DNA from: an uncultured Candidatus Saccharibacteria bacterium
GTDB lineage: Bacteria; Patescibacteriota; Minisyncoccia; Phycocordibacterales; UBA918
Assembly (NCBI GenBank): GCA_964638425.1
Contig: CAZWYM010000004.1
Span: 33,301 to 96,562 of the forward strand
DNA: 63,262 nucleotides
Reading direction: 5' to 3'
The position numbers and the translations under genes are program-made. How positions within the stretch are numbered: position 1 is the first letter of the stretch; the number at the start of each line of letters is the position of its first letter. Below, piece by piece: positions 1,969-63,262 of the stretch. The notes below the pieces were generated by a model. The model did not search any database. It was not told where the DNA came from and saw only the letters and a list, made by a program, of their open reading frames with translations.

Positions 1969-3726
1969 CTACATTTTCTTCGTTTCGATTTCTGCAAGGA
2001 GATGGTTCCCAACTGATTCAAGTGTGATTTGTTGGGAATTACCATTTCTTGATTCAAGAGTCACCATTTTTTCTGCCACTTCTTTATCTCCTACAACGAT
2101 GAAGTAGGGGAGTCGTTCCTGTTTTGCTGTTCGGATTTTTTTACCCATTGATTCATTGCTGGTATCTAAGGTCGATCTAATGCCAACTGCGGATAGTTCG
2201 GTATGTACTTGTGTTGCGTACGCGCTATGTGCATCACTCACAGGAATAACGCGAATTTGCTCAGGAGCAAGCCAAAGGGGGAAGTTCCCACCGAGATGCT
2301 CTATAAGTACCGCAGAGAAGCGCTCAATAGATCCCATAATTGCGCAATGGATCATAACGATACGCTCTTTCTGACCAGCTTCATTGATACATGAAAGATC
2401 AAATCGTTCAGGGAGATTCATGTCTAGTTGTATCGTTGCGACCTGATGCTCACGTCCAAGAGAATCCTTTGCCATAAAGTCGAGTTTTGGTCCGTACATA
2501 GCAGCTTCTCCCGGCGCTTCAAAGTAATCTGCGTGTCGTGCTTTCGCAATGTCTCGAAGGGCATTTTCTGCGTTGTCCCATATTTCCTTTGTGCCGAGAT
2601 AGTTTTCGAATTTCGAAGGCTCATGAAAGGAAAGGCGAACGCGGAGGTTGAATCCAAAAGTACTGTAAAACGTATCAATCATGTCCCAAATTCTAAAGAA
2701 TTCTTCCTTTACTTGGCTATGTCTACAAAATACATGAGAATCATCTTGTGTAATAGAAAGCACGCGAGTTAGTCCACCAAGTTCTCCTGATTGTTCATCA
2801 CGATATACCATTGTCGTTTCTGCGTACCGTTGAGGCATCTCTCTGTAGCTATGTGGCTTACGATCAAAGATTTGTGTGTGGTGCGGACAGTTCATTGGCT
2901 TGAGTGCATACTCCTTACCTTCACGTGTTGTAATACGAAATAATTCATCCGCAAATTTTTCCCAATGCCCTGAGGTGACATAGAGATCTTTCTTTGTGAT
3001 GTGTGGGATGGTGACACGAGTGTACCCATGTTTTTCTCTAAGTGCCCAAATGTACGTATCGAGTGTATTACGAAGGATGGCACCTTTTGGAGTCCAAAGA
3101 GGAAGTCCTGATCCTACAAGGTCTGAGAATGTGAAGAGGTCGAGTTCCTTACCAAGTTTTCGGTGGTCACGCTTCTTCGCTTCCTCAATTTGTGTGAGGT
3201 GTGCAGTGAGTGCTTCGCCATCTTCAAATGCAAGCCCGTAAATACGGGTAAGCATTGGATTGTTTGAATCTCCACGCCAGTATGCTCCTGCGAGTGAGGT
3301 GAGCTTGAATGAGTCAGCTGGAATATCAGTTGCTGGGGATTCACTGTGCCCACCTCGACAAAGGTCGGTGAACTCTGTGTGTCCTTCACCCACAGTATAA
3401 AGCGTTATCGTTTCACCAGCCTTTTCGAGGTCATTGATAAGCTCAGTCTTGTACACATTATTTTTGAAAATTTCTCGAGCCTCGTTTGGGGTTACGACAC
3501 GATGGGTAAACGCTTTCCATGATGAAAGCATCTTTTTCATGTTTTTTTCGAGTTGTTTTAGGTCTGCATCACTTGGTGTTGCGCCCCCGCTAAAATCAAA
3601 GTCATAGTAAAATCCTGTTTCAATAGCTGGACCAATAGTAGGAAGGGCATGAGGAAAATCCTTGCGGACGGAACACGCGAGAAGATGTGCGAGAGTGTGA
3701 CGTTTTTGTTCGAGGGATGTTTCCAT
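1969..3726 (-). CDS. thrS: Threonyl-tRNA synthetase (starts at the editing/SAD domain; no TGS domain)
   Basis: 585-aa ORF. N-terminal HTLAHLL...GPAIETGFYYDFDF editing-domain motifs, a class II core (..EYALKPMNCPHH.., ..RVLSITQDDSH..) and an anticodon-binding C-terminus. ATG at 3726. Confidence 0.93.
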   Translation of the reverse strand: METSLEQKRHTLAHLLACSVRKDFPHALPTIGPAIETGFYYDFDFSGGATPSDADLKQLEKNMKKMLSSWKAFTHRVVTPNEAREIFKNNVYKTELINDLEKAGETITLYTVGEGHTEFTDLCRGGHSESPATDIPADSFKLTSLAGAYWRGDSNNPMLTRIYGLAFEDGEALTAHLTQIEEAKKRDHRKLGKELDLFTFSDLVGSGLPLWTPKGAILRNTLDTYIWALREKHGYTRVTIPHITKKDLYVTSGHWEKFADELFRITTREGKEYALKPMNCPHHTQIFDRKPHSYREMPQRYAETTMVYRDEQSGELGGLTRVLSITQDDSHVFCRHSQVKEEFFRIWDMIDTFYSTFGFNLRVRLSFHEPSKFENYLGTKEIWDNAENALRDIAKARHADYFEAPGEAAMYGPKLDFMAKDSLGREHQVATIQLDMNLPERFDLSCINEAGQKERIVMIHCAIMGSIERFSAVLIEHLGGNFPLWLAPEQIRVIPVSDAHSAYATQVHTELSAVGIRSTLDTSNESMGKKIRTAKQERLPYFIVVGDKEVAEKMVTLESRNGNSQQITLESVGNHLLAEIETKKM

Positions 3727-33014: not shown

Positions 33015-34214
33015 ATGAAAATTGTATTATCACGACGGGAGGTTTTTCTCGCGATGGGGTTGGTGTTTTTGTTTTTATCAGTAACTTTTGCATTTTTACC
33101 AGCACAGGCGAGTGCTTCGGAATGTAGCTTTAGTCGTGACCTTGAATTTGGCGATACGGGTGAGGACGTAAAATGCTTGCAAGAGTATTTGAATGATACT
33201 TCATACACGATTGCACTGAGTGGTGTTGGCTCAAAGGGCATGGAGACAGGTGAATTTAAAACCCTTACCAAAGAAGCGCTCATGAAGTGGCAGAGTGCAA
33301 ACGGAATTGCACCAGCGAGTGGATACTTTGGTCCGAAGTCTCGAGCGACATACATGGTATTGGCGAAGAACGGAATCACCTCTATCCCACCAGTTCCTGT
33401 AGTGTCGCTACCTACACCAAATCCGGTTACTCCAGCGACGGTAAAGTCTTCTGATAATTCGAGTTCGAAAGTAGAGGACGAAAGTTCTCGAGACGTGATT
33501 CTTGATGCAATAGATGCAATAGAGGAAGCAGAAGATGAAATCGACGATAACCCAAGCGCAGAGGATATTGATTCAGCAAAAGAAAACCTTGATGATGCAC
33601 GGAAGGATTTGATGGACGCAATACGGTCGTATTTCGAGGGAGAATTCGATGATGCAGAAAATCAGGCAGAAGACGCATTTAATAATGCGCAAAACGCAAT
33701 CGAGGATGCAGGAGGTGAGTCGAAGAGCCAAGAAGCTGAAGATGCTATAGGCGATGCACAAAATGCAATAGACGACGCACAAGATGAGATCGATACTGCA
33801 GAGGATGATGGAGACGATGTTGATGATGCACAAGATTTGCTCGATGAAGCGCAAGACCTTCTCGATGATGCAGAGGATGCACTCGACAATGACGATGAGG
33901 ATGAAGCTATCGACCTTGCGCAAGATGCAGAAGACAAAGCAAATGACGCAGTTGATGAAATAGGGAACGGCGGAAGTAACGATGTCGAAGATATGCTCGA
34001 CGACGCTCGAGATGACCTCGATGATGCACGGAATGACGTAGATGACGCTATTGATAACAACGACGATGTCGGCGATGCAGAAGACTTCCTCGATGACGCA
34101 GAAGACCTTCTCGATGACGCTGAAGACGCAATCGACAATGGCGATGAGGCTGAGGCAGAAGACTTGATTGATGATGCGCTCGACCTTATAGACGATGCTC
34201 TAAACGAACTCTAG
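33015..34214 (+). CDS. Exported protein with a peptidoglycan-binding (PG_binding_1-like) domain plus a ~240-aa polyacidic helical-repeat region
   Basis: Signal/anchor MKIVLSRREVFLAMGLVFLFLSVTFAFLPAQASA. ..GDTGEDVKCLQEYLN.....G.F...T..A...WQ..NGI.ASGYFG..S is PG-binding-like. It is followed by DDA.D.LDDA.D-type repeats that appear about half Asp/Glu by eye. Confidence 0.75.
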   Translation: MKIVLSRREVFLAMGLVFLFLSVTFAFLPAQASASECSFSRDLEFGDTGEDVKCLQEYLNDTSYTIALSGVGSKGMETGEFKTLTKEALMKWQSANGIAPASGYFGPKSRATYMVLAKNGITSIPPVPVVSLPTPNPVTPATVKSSDNSSSKVEDESSRDVILDAIDAIEEAEDEIDDNPSAEDIDSAKENLDDARKDLMDAIRSYFEGEFDDAENQAEDAFNNAQNAIEDAGGESKSQEAEDAIGDAQNAIDDAQDEIDTAEDDGDDVDDAQDLLDEAQDLLDDAEDALDNDDEDEAIDLAQDAEDKANDAVDEIGNGGSNDVEDMLDDARDDLDDARNDVDDAIDNNDDVGDAEDFLDDAEDLLDDAEDAIDNGDEAEAEDLIDDALDLIDDALNEL

Positions 34215-61469: not shown

Positions 61470-61958
61470 TTATTGAAGAGAACCGATGCCAGTTGCACGC
61501 GCAATAAGACGTGACGTTCTTTCAAACCCAAGTGAAAGATAGCTACGTTGACGCTGGGTGATGGTAAATAGTTGTGAGTTATGTGAAAGCTTTACCATAT
61601 CTCGGAGTACGGAATTACTCCAGTCACGACTACCAAACGAGGAGCAGGGGAGGTGCATAAGATTCTTGATATACCCCGCCTCAGTTTCTTCAGTTTGCCA
61701 GTCGTATAAGTTGGGTGATTGAAGTGAAAAGCCTATGTACCCAACGAGAGCTTGAGAAGTCTCTAGTGCGAGAATAGTATCCATGAGAAGCACAACACCT
61801 GTAACTCCGGTTTGGATAAATCGCTCTTTTGCAGATACAATTTCCTGCTCAGTGGGTACTATATTTTTACCTTCAAACATTTCCCGAGATGCCAGTGCTA
61901 TATTTGCAACAATGACGATTCGTTTTTCCTGCACTTCCTGCCGTGTTGATGTTTCCAT
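61470..61958 (-). CDS. Hypothetical protein (162 aa), paralog of the previous gene
   Basis: ATG 61958 is preceded by ttAGGAGaatctcg. Shared blocks are P..(E/Q)(S/E)I..AK......G......(I/M)D.I...ET and P..SFG......VL.D...LS....F. Confidence 0.65.
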   Translation of the reverse strand: METSTRQEVQEKRIVIVANIALASREMFEGKNIVPTEQEIVSAKERFIQTGVTGVVLLMDTILALETSQALVGYIGFSLQSPNLYDWQTEETEAGYIKNLMHLPCSSFGSRDWSNSVLRDMVKLSHNSQLFTITQRQRSYLSLGFERTSRLIARATGIGSLQ

Positions 61959-62029
61959 CGAGATTCTCCTAAAATATGTAAAGAGCAATACGCCGTTAGA
62001 CTAGCACAAACGAGCTTCTTGGCAATATA

Positions 62030-62767
62030 TTATAGATTTGCGTATATGAGGTAGAGAGCGGGGATACAGAGTAGGAGAGTCATTACTTTCGTCACACCAA
62101 AGTGAGTGTGAGATTGCTCAACATGGGGAAGCTTCAGGTAGGTAACTCCAATGAATGTCGCAAGACCAATAAAAACACAATTGATACCGTATAAATGAAA
62201 TGCTCCGTAGACGAATACGGGTTGCACTGTCGCGATTCCAAAGCCAATGGTTGCGAGTGGAAGAATGAGCGCTGTTGCAATAGCAACTCCAGCAATAATC
62301 GTATCTTTTTCTGCACGGGTGAGAGCGACTATGCCCGCTAGTCCACAAATAAAGGCAATGAGGATGTCATACGGGGTGGTTACCGTCCGCAAGAGTAACT
62401 GTGAAAGGTCATTACTCTGTGGAGCTATCGAAAAGAAAAGTGCAGAGATTGCAATGGTGACGACGGTCACAATGACAAAATTGCGCATCGACTTTTTTAA
62501 AAATGACGTGTCATGAATACCAAGAGAAAGTCCAATGCCAATTATTGGACCCATGAGTGGGGAAATGAGCATTGCACCAACAAGGATGACGACTGAGTTT
62601 ATGTGGAGGCCAATGGCGGTAAGAAGGGAGGCGCATATGAGCATCCAAATATTTGAACCGCGAAATTCTGCTTGTCGTTTGATATCTTCAATTATTTTTA
62701 CCTCGTGTTGTTTCCCGTAATGGAGATCGAGAATGTGGTTTATCTTTTTCCGGAGACGTTTAAGCAT
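62030..62767 (-). CDS. Polytopic membrane protein (DUF389/TIGR00341-like)
   Basis: ..NIWMLICASLLTAIGLHINSVVILVGAMLISPLMGPIIGIGLSLG.. and 6-7 TM segments. Confidence 0.6.
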   Translation of the reverse strand: MLKRLRKKINHILDLHYGKQHEVKIIEDIKRQAEFRGSNIWMLICASLLTAIGLHINSVVILVGAMLISPLMGPIIGIGLSLGIHDTSFLKKSMRNFVIVTVVTIAISALFFSIAPQSNDLSQLLLRTVTTPYDILIAFICGLAGIVALTRAEKDTIIAGVAIATALILPLATIGFGIATVQPVFVYGAFHLYGINCVFIGLATFIGVTYLKLPHVEQSHTHFGVTKVMTLLLCIPALYLIYANL

Positions 62768-62797
62768 GCTCTGAAGTATATCTCAGAGTATGCAAAG

Positions 62798-62822
62798 TAA
62801 AATCCCCAAGAAGGGGATTTTA
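62798..62822 (-). terminator. Terminator-like hairpin 30 nt upstream of the DUF389 gene start, i.e. leader position on the minus strand
   Basis: On the minus strand: taaaatcccc-ttctt-ggggatttta-ctttg. Confidence 0.6.
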
Positions 62823-62837
62823 CTCAATCATTTGCGC

Positions 62838-63262
62838 GCTCCGGCGGCAGGATTCTCCCATTACATGGGCAGTACACCTTGTCGATACTTTATTTCCTGA
62901 TGTCATAAATTATCAGACAAGGTCTTCGAATCCTGACGTAACAGTTTCCCAAACTGTTACTCCGCCTACGCGCTACAAAACAAAATACCCCTTGCGGGGC
63001 ATTTTGTTTAAATGATTGATAGGCTCCGGCGGCAGGATTCTCCCATTACATGGGCAGTACACCTTGTCGATACTTTATTTCCTGATGTCATAAATTATCA
63101 GACAAGGTCTTCGAATCCTGACGTAACAGTTTCCCAAACTGTTACTCCGCCTACGCGCTACAAAACAAAATACCCCTTGCGGGGCATTTTGTTTAAATGA
63201 TTGATAGGCTCCGGCGGCAGGATTCTCCCATTACATGGGCAGTACACCTTGTCGATACTTTA
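62838..63262. repeat. Head-to-tail array of a 185-nt non-coding unit (2.3 copies visible, truncated by the window end); candidate structured RNA
   Basis: Units at 62838-63022 and 63023-63207, with a third from 63208. I see no differences between them by eye. Each contains a three-way junction, a 10-bp hairpin and a terminator hairpin. Confidence 0.9.

Follow-up and report, generated by a model that had tools for sequence, protein, structure and literature searches.

The window analysed here is a 63,262-nucleotide stretch of DNA from an uncultured Candidatus Saccharibacteria bacterium (contig CAZWYM010000004.1). Near its right-hand end it carries, on the minus strand, a gene for a DUF389 membrane protein, and upstream of that gene a head-to-tail array of a 185-nt unit that runs off the end of the window. 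Read on the minus strand, each unit consists of a 13-nt spacer, a terminator-like hairpin and a 136-nt structured element whose last 18 nt have the sequence of a tRNA 3' end. The features are as follows.

62030..62767 (-): DUF389 membrane-protein gene (Pfam PF04087, E = 6e-36), a downstream neighbour only and not part of the element.
62796..62837 (-): native tRNA trailer (GCGCAAAUGAUUGAG) plus the proximal terminator-like hairpin, a perfect 12-bp hairpin at 62796-62824 just upstream of the DUF389 start codon at 62767; shared with a relative that has no unit.
62838..63022 (-): repeat unit, copy 1 (185 nt); covariance model R1 (below) matches 62838-62973(-) with 134.1 bits.
63023..63207 (-): repeat unit, copy 2, identical to copy 1; R1 matches 63023-63158(-) with 134.1 bits.
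63208..63262 (-): repeat unit, copy 3, cut off by the end of the window; partial match to model positions 83-137, 46.2 bits.
62838..62855 (-): 18-nt core GAATCCTGCCGCCGGAGC (minus strand), equal to tRNA-Asn(GUU) positions 57-74, that is the 3' half of the T-loop, the T-stem 3' strand, the acceptor 3' strand, G73 and C74; it forms the 3' strands of helices P3 and P1, and is repeated at 63023-63040 and 63208-63225.
62857..62869 (-): hp3, CCCAUGUAAUGGG, with the conserved loop UGUAA.
62876..62923 (-): hp2, a long hairpin of 12 bp with one bulge (62876-87 / 62911-23) plus an apical extension.
62928..62935 (-): P3 5' strand CAGGAUUC, part of the conserved CGUCAGGAUUCGAA, a motif that recurs in 8 loci from the genome-contig scan; it pairs with 62848-62855 and closes the inner three-way junction.
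62938..62960 (-): hp1, a perfect 10-bp hairpin in the place of the D and anticodon arms in the tRNA-like three-way junction.
62962..62973 (-): P1 5' strand (GCGCG-UA-GGCGG), complementary to the acceptor-derived part of the core.
62978..63009 (either strand): 14-bp terminator-like hairpin inside each unit (A-tract, CCCC/GGGG stem, U-tract), symmetric and so able in principle to act in either direction; second copy at 63163-63194.
63010..63022 (-): spacer CUAUCAAUCAUUU, which follows each internal core and is complementary to the native trailer at 62824-62833.

The initial annotation described a perfect 185-nt tandem array of a highly structured non-coding unit, and that observation holds in full. 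Tandem Repeats Finder reports 62838-63262 with period 185 and 100% matches without indels, in 2.3 copies, a count cut short by the end of the window 55 nt into the third copy. All of the helices that had been named are present, including the 14-bp hairpin, which is 93% complementary with a single A.C (plus strand) = G.U (minus strand) position, and the ORF 63012-63200 exists, although the array is non-coding. Predicted folding is far beyond chance (z = -10.8 on the plus strand and -11.2 on the minus strand for 62768-63022, and z = -5.9 for the 136-nt core alone), and the minimum-energy fold of the unit by itself gives the structure listed above. No other copy lies in the remaining 62.8 kb of the window. 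Since the unit-to-unit junction gattgatag|gctccggcggcaggattc|tcccatt occurs twice and could not exist in a genome with only one unit, at least two units are present. An independent Logan assembly of the locus (SRR12762297; L001) breaks 30 nt into the first core, as a k=31 graph would at a repeat boundary.

We next asked whether the array matches any described element. Rfam 15 gave nothing on the window at gathering score, and for 62600-63262 at E <= 10 there were only chance-level hits (14-19 bits against gathering scores of 45-69), so that no curated riboswitch or leader family matches; a search of 13 related loci found only tRNAs and group I introns. Our literature searches did not turn up the family either. 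ARAGORN found no gene in the window and there was no RF00005 hit at E <= 10, so the unit lacks the cloverleaf of a tRNA gene. The unit is also neither a CRISPR array, since the whole 185 nt is repeated identically with no variable spacer, nor a ToxI-like type III toxin-antitoxin repeat; the latter are short (about 34-45 nt) and are followed by a terminator and an endoribonuclease toxin gene, while here the unit is 185 nt and the downstream gene encodes a DUF389 membrane protein. BLAST of the unit against phages and plasmids gave no match, and three successive pattern scans of viral contigs gave six chance hits in coding DNA, then 0, then 0. Exact 33-mer and 23-mer scans of the metagenome and genome collections gave 0 hits, and the window's exact unit is therefore not in those collections. 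The spurious 62-aa ORF, looked up in order to find other assemblies, was not on record, and searches with the neighbouring proteins for longer contigs of the same organism returned only L001.

The history of the locus can be read against its closest relative, locus L002, which has a 79% identical DUF389 protein and is syntenic over 9 genes. L002 has the same DUF389 gene, the same proximal hairpin and the same start-codon hairpin, but no unit; in its place is a tRNA gene split by a group I intron (RF00028, 82.5 bits) with an HNH ORF. We first read this tRNA as Thr(UGU), but its exons are identical to intron-less tRNA-Asn(GTT) genes, such as that of locus L112, and U1-A72/G73 fits Asn. The window and L002 align from DUF389 through the trailer to tRNA position 57, and similarity then stops exactly inside the T-loop. 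The 18-nt core of the window is identical to the 3' end of the tRNA in L002, L084 and L112. The tRNA itself would lie beyond the window end, and its presence upstream of the array rests on L012 and L013. These two loci from the same SRR series as L001, only inferred to be from the same organism, are syntenic with the left side of L002 at similar identity and GC content and end in the 5' half of tRNA-Asn; contigs retrieved through the intron-encoded HNH protein came from other samples.

A scan of genome contigs for the 18-nt core gave L084, in which two cores lie exactly 185 nt apart in the order tRNA-Asn, hairpin, one homologous unit, hairpin, and a scan of metagenomes gave 34 more loci. A covariance model built here (R1) found 72 matches at E < 0.01, all in Patescibacteria-type loci and none in the many non-CPR loci that share the same tRNA core. 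Most lay 7-46 nt downstream of a same-strand tRNA, mostly Asn but also Tyr, Arg(TCG), Arg(ACG) and Trp, and in 18 of 19 non-redundant cases unit and tRNA share an identical 3' block of 12-22 nt. The P1 5' strand changes to match the acceptor stem of the neighbouring tRNA, for example GCTCCTCGGG/CCCGAGGAGC in L136 and GTGCGGAGGG/CCCTGCGCAC after tRNA-Tyr in L164. Because the collection scans required GAATCCTGCC and GTCAGGATTCGAA, the invariance of P3 and the list of partner tRNAs are biased by how members were found. Hairpins equivalent to the one at 62978-63009 follow the tRNA and every unit in relatives. Natural multi-unit arrays, some of them unambiguous arrays of diverged units, also lie inside other contigs, namely L136 (two units 185 nt apart, plus a third), L163 and L159 (two units after the tRNA), L144, L082 and L092.

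All five helices show heavy compensatory change. On the 40 distinct sequences of the scored alignment (A2), which was fitted to the model, 90.1% of cells are paired, against 64.8% after shuffling and 36-44% with partners slid, and 37 of 45 pairs have changes on both sides. The covariation score is 0.524, reached by 0 of 500 shuffles, against 0.137. By helix, 9 of 10 P1 pairs, 8 of 8 hp1 pairs (95.9% of cells paired), 15 of 15 modelled hp2 pairs and 4 of 4 hp3 pairs covary, and the hp3 loop TGTAA is nearly invariant in the type-A alignment. RNAalifold on a plain MAFFT alignment recovers P3, hp2 and hp3 independently, with 10 compensated pairs. The hp1 loops are not conserved across the family, and we therefore rejected the idea that hp1 (loop UUGGGAA) is an anticodon arm. 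Hammerhead-like CUGAUGA motifs in hp2 were likewise dropped, since they have no Rfam support and the sequence is not conserved. The stems show no strand bias (46 G.U against 37 A.C in 1645 cells) and are almost purely Watson-Crick (in hp1, 279 Watson-Crick, 1 G.U and 1 A.C), which is unusual for an RNA read from one strand and fits equally well a constraint at the DNA level or on both strands.

The interpretation offered with the original observation is only partly supported. Its preference for the minus strand as sense was correct, since this is the strand of the tRNA whose 3' end each unit carries, and its fallback, an array of individually terminated sRNA genes, is close to the best reading, although it missed that each unit ends with a tRNA 3' end. 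Its preferred model, a tandem transcription-attenuating riboswitch or leader of the DUF389 gene, is not supported. The array does lie upstream of DUF389 on the same strand, is highly structured, and has a terminator-like hairpin after each unit. However, L002 retains the gene and both hairpins without a unit, tblastn found DUF389 in none of the other approximately 45 loci that carry family members, and downstream genes vary, the constant neighbour being an upstream tRNA. In the minimum-energy and centroid folds of both strands the terminator-like hairpins are self-contained and the junction element closes on itself, so the predicted folds show no mutually exclusive pairing of sensor and terminator. 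Tandem riboswitches or attenuators such as the tandem glycine aptamers also have repeated structured modules upstream of a gene, each with a terminator-like hairpin, but here there is no conserved downstream gene and no aptamer/expression-platform interplay, and the units are identical copies rather than cooperating diverged aptamers. We consider this model all but excluded.

The closest known analogue is the 178-bp repeat of the E. coli tyrT/tyrV genes and its rtT (RttR) RNA (RF00391). In NC_000913.3 we confirmed that tyrV is followed on the same strand by 3.1 copies of a 178-bp unit, each ending in the last 19 nt of tRNA-Tyr (AATCCTTCCCCCACCACCA), and that the predicted fold pairs that end with an upstream complement; as here, the shared end starts in the T-loop and copy number is plausibly set by unequal recombination. 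There is no sequence or covariance-model similarity between the two (no RF00391 match even at E <= 10). The E. coli unit is weakly structured (z = -0.9, against -5.9 to -11 here), has no terminator per unit, overlaps the small tpr ORF, and is confined to enterobacteria and tRNA-Tyr, whereas the present family has a conserved double three-way-junction body, follows at least four tRNA species and is found in Patescibacteria. Bacterial tRNA-like small RNAs (YrlA / Y RNA-like, RF02553) and eukaryotic mascRNA-type tRNA mimics also imitate the acceptor/T-arm half of a tRNA and are handled by tRNA-processing enzymes. The window has no RF02553 match at E <= 10, no Ro/Rsr or other recurrent partner gene is nearby, the T-loop is replaced here by a three-way junction, and the helix is longer than in a tRNA.

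The best explanation, in our view, is that the array is a tandem amplification, of at least two and probably more identical copies, of one member of an apparently undescribed family of tRNA-linked structured elements in Patescibacteria (CPR bacteria). On the tRNA strand, a family member follows a tRNA gene, starts with a terminator-like hairpin and continues with an element of about 137 nt. The two ends of this element pair into P1, a helix of about 10 bp that reproduces the acceptor stem of the neighbouring tRNA; P1 stacks on the 8-bp P3, built from T-stem and T-loop sequence; hp1 branches off where the D and anticodon arms would be; and P3 opens into a second three-way junction carrying hp2 and hp3. 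We infer that, since the core is a direct repeat of the tRNA's own 3' end, unequal homologous recombination or replication slippage between cores can delete, duplicate or amplify whole 185-nt units, which would give 0 units in L002, 1-2 units in other lineages and an identical multi-copy array here; this logic has long been proposed for the E. coli repeats. We further infer that the units are most likely transcribed on the tRNA strand, by read-through from the tRNA promoter or from promoters not yet recognised, and cut out as stable tRNA-like small RNAs, because P1 and P3 mimic the acceptor/T-arm half of a tRNA that RNase P and the 3'-end processing enzymes recognise. The anatomy, the family, the link to tRNAs, the covariation and the lack of any link to DUF389 rest directly on our analyses, whereas transcription, processing and any cellular role are inferred from sequence alone. 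Several features sit uneasily with the expressed-RNA part. A terminator-like hairpin lies between the tRNA and the first unit and between units, with almost no room for a promoter, and simple scans of 62000-63262 found no sigma-70-like site and no terminator (the hairpin inside the unit was not called because its A and U tracts pair with each other). In addition, the acceptor-plus-T helix is 16-18 bp long rather than the 12 bp of a tRNA, so recognition by RNase P or RNase Z is not assured, and in a multi-unit transcript the cores can pair in shifted registers. We thus hold the identity of the array, a tRNA-linked family member and not a DUF389 leader, with high confidence, regard expression as small RNAs as about an even possibility, and have moderate confidence in the statement as a whole.

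The most serious alternative, which we consider possible but less likely, is a selfish or mobile palindromic DNA cassette, like a REP element or MITE, in which the constraint on the hairpins acts on single-stranded or cruciform DNA, the three-hairpin module spreads between tRNA genes by recombination through the universally conserved D-arm and T-loop sequences, tandem arrays are a by-product, and no RNA function is needed. Like REP/BIME elements and MITEs, the units are short, multi-copy, palindromic and non-coding, the complement of the core (interrupted by hp1) faces the core, and they break assemblies; about 8 of the 34 metagenome contigs end at or near a unit. The lack of strand asymmetry in the stems, the symmetry of the flanking terminator-like hairpins, the presence or absence of units in close relatives (the window against L002) and the attachment of the same module to the ends of four different tRNA species all fit this view. 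Several diverged copies occur per locus, including some not next to a detectable tRNA in the 8-kb stretches examined: L138 has two copies 7.7 kb apart, L112 has a second partial copy 2.7 kb away, and L089 has one module on the opposite strand. In L013, L089, L163 and L022, "5'-type" versions are fused to a tRNA leader, a 5' acceptor strand and a D-arm relic, upstream of tRNA-Asn. On the other hand, no transposase, integrase or reverse transcriptase recurs within 3 kb of units in 32 loci and no RAYT was seen, no target-site duplication was seen other than the tRNA core, and there were no matches in the phage, plasmid or viral-contig collections. Nearly all copies lie directly after a tRNA and point the same way, their ends derive from the neighbouring tRNA rather than being specific to the element, and unpaired nucleotides such as the UGUAA loop and the GUACYG linker are conserved, which a pure palindrome constraint does not need.

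A direct repeat of a tRNA 3' end starting in the T-loop, with homology to L002 breaking exactly there, is also the classic signature of integration into a tRNA gene, and the array might be the later-duplicated 167-nt stub of an integrative element that duplicated its att site in tRNA-Asn. We find this very unlikely, since only 167 nt lie between cores, no integrase or cargo is present, the element also carries the complement of the core at its 5' end, which an att site does not need, and independent decay products would not conserve the same approximately 137-nt body, with compensatory changes, across distant lineages and after four tRNA species. Finally, the tandem arrangement could be an artefact of an assembler circling its graph at a contig end, the genome then holding one or two units rather than a longer array. 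The perfect identity of the copies, the window ending inside the third, and the inability of short-read graphs to count identical 185-nt repeats leave room for this, but we think it improbable given the unit-to-unit junction, the break of the independent assembly exactly at the repeat boundary, the unambiguous arrays of diverged units inside other contigs and the comparable natural array in E. coli.

A more speculative possibility, unlikely on present evidence but not ruled out by it, is that the units are a new class of modular tRNA chimeras, in which a conserved module of hp1, hp2 and hp3 is grafted between the acceptor strands and T-arm of whichever tRNA it follows (Asn, Tyr, Arg or Trp) and moves between tRNA genes through the conserved D-arm and T-loop sequences. 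The products would be abundant tRNA-top-half mimics with a specific cellular role, perhaps as a decoy or sponge for enzymes or toxins that recognise tRNA acceptor/T-arm helices. Another possibility concerns U-G-U anticodon loops, since the hp3 loop N-U-G-U-A-A-N copies the tRNA-Tyr anticodon loop, the motif recognised by tRNA-guanine transglycosylase and by colicin-E5-type anticodon nucleases. Tandem amplification, as in this window, would then be a way of tuning dosage.

Patescibacteria make up a large share of bacterial diversity, yet almost none of their non-coding RNAs have been characterised. The present work turns one odd repeat into a directly testable family with strong compensatory evolution, a working covariance model and a simple defining rule, that each unit copies the 3' end of the tRNA it follows. 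In practical terms, identical copies break metagenomic assemblies at tRNA loci, and these elements should not be annotated as riboswitches, tRNAs or small ORFs. If the units are expressed, they are a new kind of tRNA mimic and the first relative in kind of the enigmatic E. coli rtT RNA; if they act as DNA, they are a new type of repeat that parasitises tRNA gene ends.

We first asked whether the tandem array is present as described. Tandem Repeats Finder reports a single array at one end of the window, and reading of the sequence together with an inverted-repeat scan confirmed, in place, every helix that the initial annotation had described. The features of this region that are needed below are as follows.

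62838-63262, tandem array with a period of 185 nt, 2.3 copies, 100% identity and no indels
62978-63009, 14-bp hairpin with a single A.C position on the plus strand, which is G.U on the minus strand
63012-63200, the only ORF of any length, present as the initial annotation had described it
62764-62793, 11-bp inverted repeat (GCATGCTCTGA / TCAGAGTATGC) that encloses the start codon of the DUF389 gene; no Shine-Dalgarno sequence is evident, and the repeat may control translation initiation
61470-61988 (minus strand), 172-aa ORF with no Pfam match, between DUF389 and the next conserved gene

Predicted folding of the array is far beyond chance, with z = -10.8 on the plus strand and -11.2 on the minus strand for 62768-63022, and z = -5.9 for the 136-nt core alone. 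Nothing like the unit occurs elsewhere in the window. Other repeats are present, however: tandem repeats of 102 nt (1.8 copies, 96%; 1-188) and 252 nt (2.1 copies, 84%; 588-1105) lie at the very start of the window and overlap the long ORF 301-1911, which probably encodes a repeat-domain protein, and they suggest that the other end of the sequence also lies in repetitive DNA. In addition, a cluster of 21-nt (7-codon) tandem repeats at 33504-34135 lies within ORF 33015-34214 and is probably an acidic repeat region in a protein.

The key to the identity of the array came from a relative. The DUF389 protein has a 79% identical homologue in a Patescibacteria genome assembly (GCA_043719255.1, here locus L002), in which synteny with the window runs over nine genes, although the 172-aa ORF has no counterpart there. 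In L002 the space upstream of DUF389 holds a tRNA gene on the same strand, which is split by a group I intron (RF00028, 82.5 bits, E = 3e-21) that encodes an HNH endonuclease. Its anticodon was at first read as UGU, but the exons are identical to intron-less tRNA-Asn(GTT) genes found later (for example in locus L112), so it is tRNA-Asn. Such a split is found in several Patescibacteria (L002 9295-9945, and also the loci L082 2327-2573, L136 8889-9129 and L092 ~3560-3670), where the tRNA-Asn(GUU) gene is interrupted in the anticodon loop by a group I intron (RF00028, ~82 bits) carrying a ~104-aa HNH endonuclease ORF; this protein has 1594 homologues at E <= 1e-10, mostly from CPR-type sources. 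The window and L002 align from DUF389 through the proximal hairpin and the trailer GCGCAAATGATTGAG into the tRNA 3' end, and similarity stops exactly at T-loop position 57. The 18 nt GAATCCTGCCGCCGGAGC (window 62838-62855, minus strand) are therefore tRNA-Asn positions 57-74, and because they belong to the repeat, every unit ends with a tRNA 3' end. This fixes the minus strand as the sense strand. The inverted repeat around the DUF389 start codon is conserved in L002, which has no repeat units. The 10-mer TCAATCATTT in the native trailer (62824-62833) is moreover the exact complement of AAATGATTGA in the unit spacer (63010-63019), so the last unit is enclosed by an extra 10-bp helix, while in L002 the motif AAATGATT flanks the tRNA on both sides, in the leader and the trailer, as a direct repeat.

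We next sought other members of what might be a family. A scan of one genome per species for the 18-nt core returned 119 loci, mostly ordinary tRNA genes from many phyla. One of these, L084 (Moraniibacteriota, about 60% GC), has two cores exactly 185 nt apart and reads tRNA-Asn(GTT), a terminator-like hairpin, one unit with the same layout as that of the window but with very different hairpin sequences, and another hairpin. The conserved motif GTCAGGATTCGAA then picked out seven more Patescibacteria-type loci (an eighth match, in locus L040, was coding sequence), and a metagenome scan gave 34 further loci. We aligned 21 units (alignment A1), wrote the five-helix structure on the alignment, and from this built a covariance model, R1, with 137 positions and 45 base pairs. 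R1 finds the two full window copies at 134 bits and the cut third copy at 46 bits, and in all it finds 72 matches at E < 0.01 in about 45 loci, although its E-values are rough. All hits lie in loci labelled, in their records, Saccharibacteria, Paceibacteria, Moranbacteria, Lloydbacteria or Patescibacteria, or in unnamed small-genome bins, apart from one weak hit in a bin labelled Omnitrophica; none lies in the Paracoccaceae, Streptomyces-like or other non-CPR loci that carry the same tRNA core. Both collection scans required GAATCCTGCC, and one of them also required GTCAGGATTCGAA, so the invariance of helix P3 and the list of partner tRNAs are biased. A weak model hit (22 bits) at L134 2237-2365, directly after tRNA-Trp(CCA), has its last 19 nt identical to that tRNA's 3' end even though the T arm is different, which suggests that the family is broader and hints that it reaches tRNAs outside the search pattern.

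On the tRNA strand the parts of the element follow one another in this order.

Spacer, then a symmetric hairpin made of an A-tract, a GC stem and a U-tract
P1 5' strand, the complement of the acceptor 3' strand; it is complete in, for example, locus L031, where GCTCCGGCGG pairs with CCGCCGGAGC
AG, then hairpin hp1
The conserved CGUCAGGAUUCGAA, whose CAGGAUUC pairs with the GAAUCCUG of the core to form P3
Hairpin hp2, which is long
Linker GUACYG
Hairpin hp3, with loop UGUAA in type A units
The core

P1 stacks on P3 through a continuous 3' strand, as the acceptor and T stems do in a tRNA, and hp1 stands where the D and anticodon arms would be. A second subtype (type B: L084, locus L108, and the second unit of L136) has a different inner junction. 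Further tRNA-like modules with different T-stem sequences follow the first unit in L082 (2931-3069) and L092 (3730-4010), and in L092 there are two nested CAGGATTCGAA...GAATTCCTG modules with no hairpin between them; the family is therefore more modular than the window copy suggests.

To measure support for this structure we used alignment A2, which contains 40 distinct sequences. In A2, 90.1% of cells form standard pairs, as compared with 64.8% after shuffling and 36-44% when partners are slid by 1-3 columns, and 37 of 45 pairs have changes on both sides. The covariation score of 0.524, against 0.137, was reached by 0 of 500 shuffles. By helix, hp1 covaries at 8 of 8 pairs, hp3 at 4 of 4, hp2 at 15 of 15 and P1 at 9 of 10. 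A2 was fitted to the model, which favours the structure; however, RNAalifold on the plain MAFFT alignment recovers P3, the base of hp2, and hp3, with 10 compensated pairs, and the minimum-energy fold of the window unit alone gives the same structure.

The constant partner of the units is a tRNA and not DUF389. In the loci where the tRNA is intron-less, ARAGORN places a same-strand tRNA 7-46 nt upstream of the unit. This tRNA is mostly Asn(GTT), but it is also Tyr(GTA) in loci L148, L152 and L164, Arg(TCG) or Arg(ACG) in L149, L162 and L165, and Trp(CCA) in L134. In 18 of 19 non-redundant cases the 3' end of the unit shares an identical block of 12-22 nt with the 3' end of that particular tRNA (at least 14 nt in 15 of the 19), and the P1 5' strand changes to match. 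DUF389, on the other hand, occurs only in the window's own relatives, and downstream genes differ between loci. No integrase, transposase or reverse transcriptase recurs nearby, and the recurrent neighbours are housekeeping genes of one syntenic group plus the intron-encoded HNH. Rfam finds only tRNAs and group I introns in 13 such loci, and literature searches found no description of the family.

Multi-unit arrangements are natural. Locus L136, inside a 19-kb contig, reads tRNA (with intron), unit A, unit B (185 nt further on), an ORF, and then unit C. Loci L163 and L159 read 5'-type element (see below), tRNA-Asn, unit, unit, and locus L144 as well as L082 and L092 also have several modules. 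These units are diverged from one another, so their assembly is unambiguous. About eight of the 34 metagenome contigs end at or near a unit, which is what near-identical copies would cause and is what happens in the window, where the copy number is at least 2. L001, a Logan contig with the identical DUF389, stops 30 nt into the first core, and L003, a contig of the relative, stops at the equivalent tRNA position.

We also looked for the other flank of the array. The glutaredoxin-like gene (Grx) next to the tRNA in L002 has a homologue in two Logan contigs, L012 and L013, from the same SRR series as L001. They are syntenic with the left half of L002, and their identity to L002 (64-93%) and their GC content (0.448 against 0.444 for the window) are similar to those of the window. 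Read towards the tRNA, L013 shows the leader, then a 222-nt "5'-type" element made of the first 11 nt of the tRNA, a 75-nt insert, a D-arm relic, hp1, GCAAG, hp2, GAACAG and hp3, and then the 5' half of tRNA-Asn, where the contig ends. Such 5'-type relatives of the unit lie upstream of tRNA-Asn in L013 (reverse strand, 50-254) and in the loci L089 (4375-4490), L163 (968-1080) and L022 (4898-5022); they consist of a copy of the tRNA leader, the 5' acceptor strand and a D-arm relic, fused to the same hp1-hp2-hp3 module, but without the T-arm and 3' acceptor part, and in L013 the 75-nt insert that interrupts the element is flanked by TGTA repeats. The likely layout is therefore Grx, 5' element, tRNA-Asn, n x 185 nt, trailer, hairpin, DUF389; this order is inferred, and no single sequence joins the two sides.

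The core is a direct repeat of the tRNA's own end, so in our view recombination or slippage between cores removes or adds whole units. L002 looks exactly like the deletion product, since its tRNA is followed by the trailer that in the window follows the last unit, and the window looks like the amplification product. The best-known precedent was examined directly. In E. coli K-12, tyrV is followed by 3.1 copies of a 178-bp unit (95% identical), each ending in the last 19 nt of tRNA-Tyr, with the sRNA gene rttR annotated in the first unit; PMC3318445 cites Bosl and Kersten (1991) for rttR being encoded by one of these repeats. The predicted fold of that unit also pairs the tRNA-derived end with an upstream complement, although its overall structure is weak (z = -0.9).

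The anatomy of the element, its recurrence as a family, its covariation and its association with tRNAs rest directly on these analyses, whereas the layout of the whole locus, the origin of the array, and any expression or function of the units are inferred. Our preferred model is that the units would be transcribed with or after the tRNA and released as tRNA-like small RNAs, but four observations weigh against it. The stems carry no strand signature (46 G.U against 37 A.C, with hp1 at 279 WC, 1 G.U and 1 A.C), and the constraint may act on DNA or on both strands. Terminator-like hairpins separate the tRNA and the units, with no room for a recognisable promoter; the stacked helix is longer than in a tRNA; and in a multi-unit transcript the cores can pair in shifted registers. 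A selfish palindromic DNA cassette that spreads among tRNA gene ends is therefore a serious rival, though we think it less likely than the preferred model. It is supported by the 5'-type variants, by copies that lie away from detectable tRNAs (locus L138, and L112), by an inverted module in L089, and by presence or absence among relatives, but the lack of any associated enzyme gene, the absence of matches in the phage, plasmid and viral collections searched, and the conserved unpaired nucleotides all argue against it.

The observation made in the initial annotation thus holds, and the array is a real feature. Its interpretation was only partly supported: its preferred reading of the array, as a transcription-attenuating riboswitch or leader of the DUF389 gene, misassigned the function. 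The array is a tandemly amplified member of an apparently undescribed family of structured elements in Patescibacteria that are linked to tRNAs and mimic the tRNA end, and it resembles the E. coli tyrT/rtT repeats in kind but is not homologous to them.
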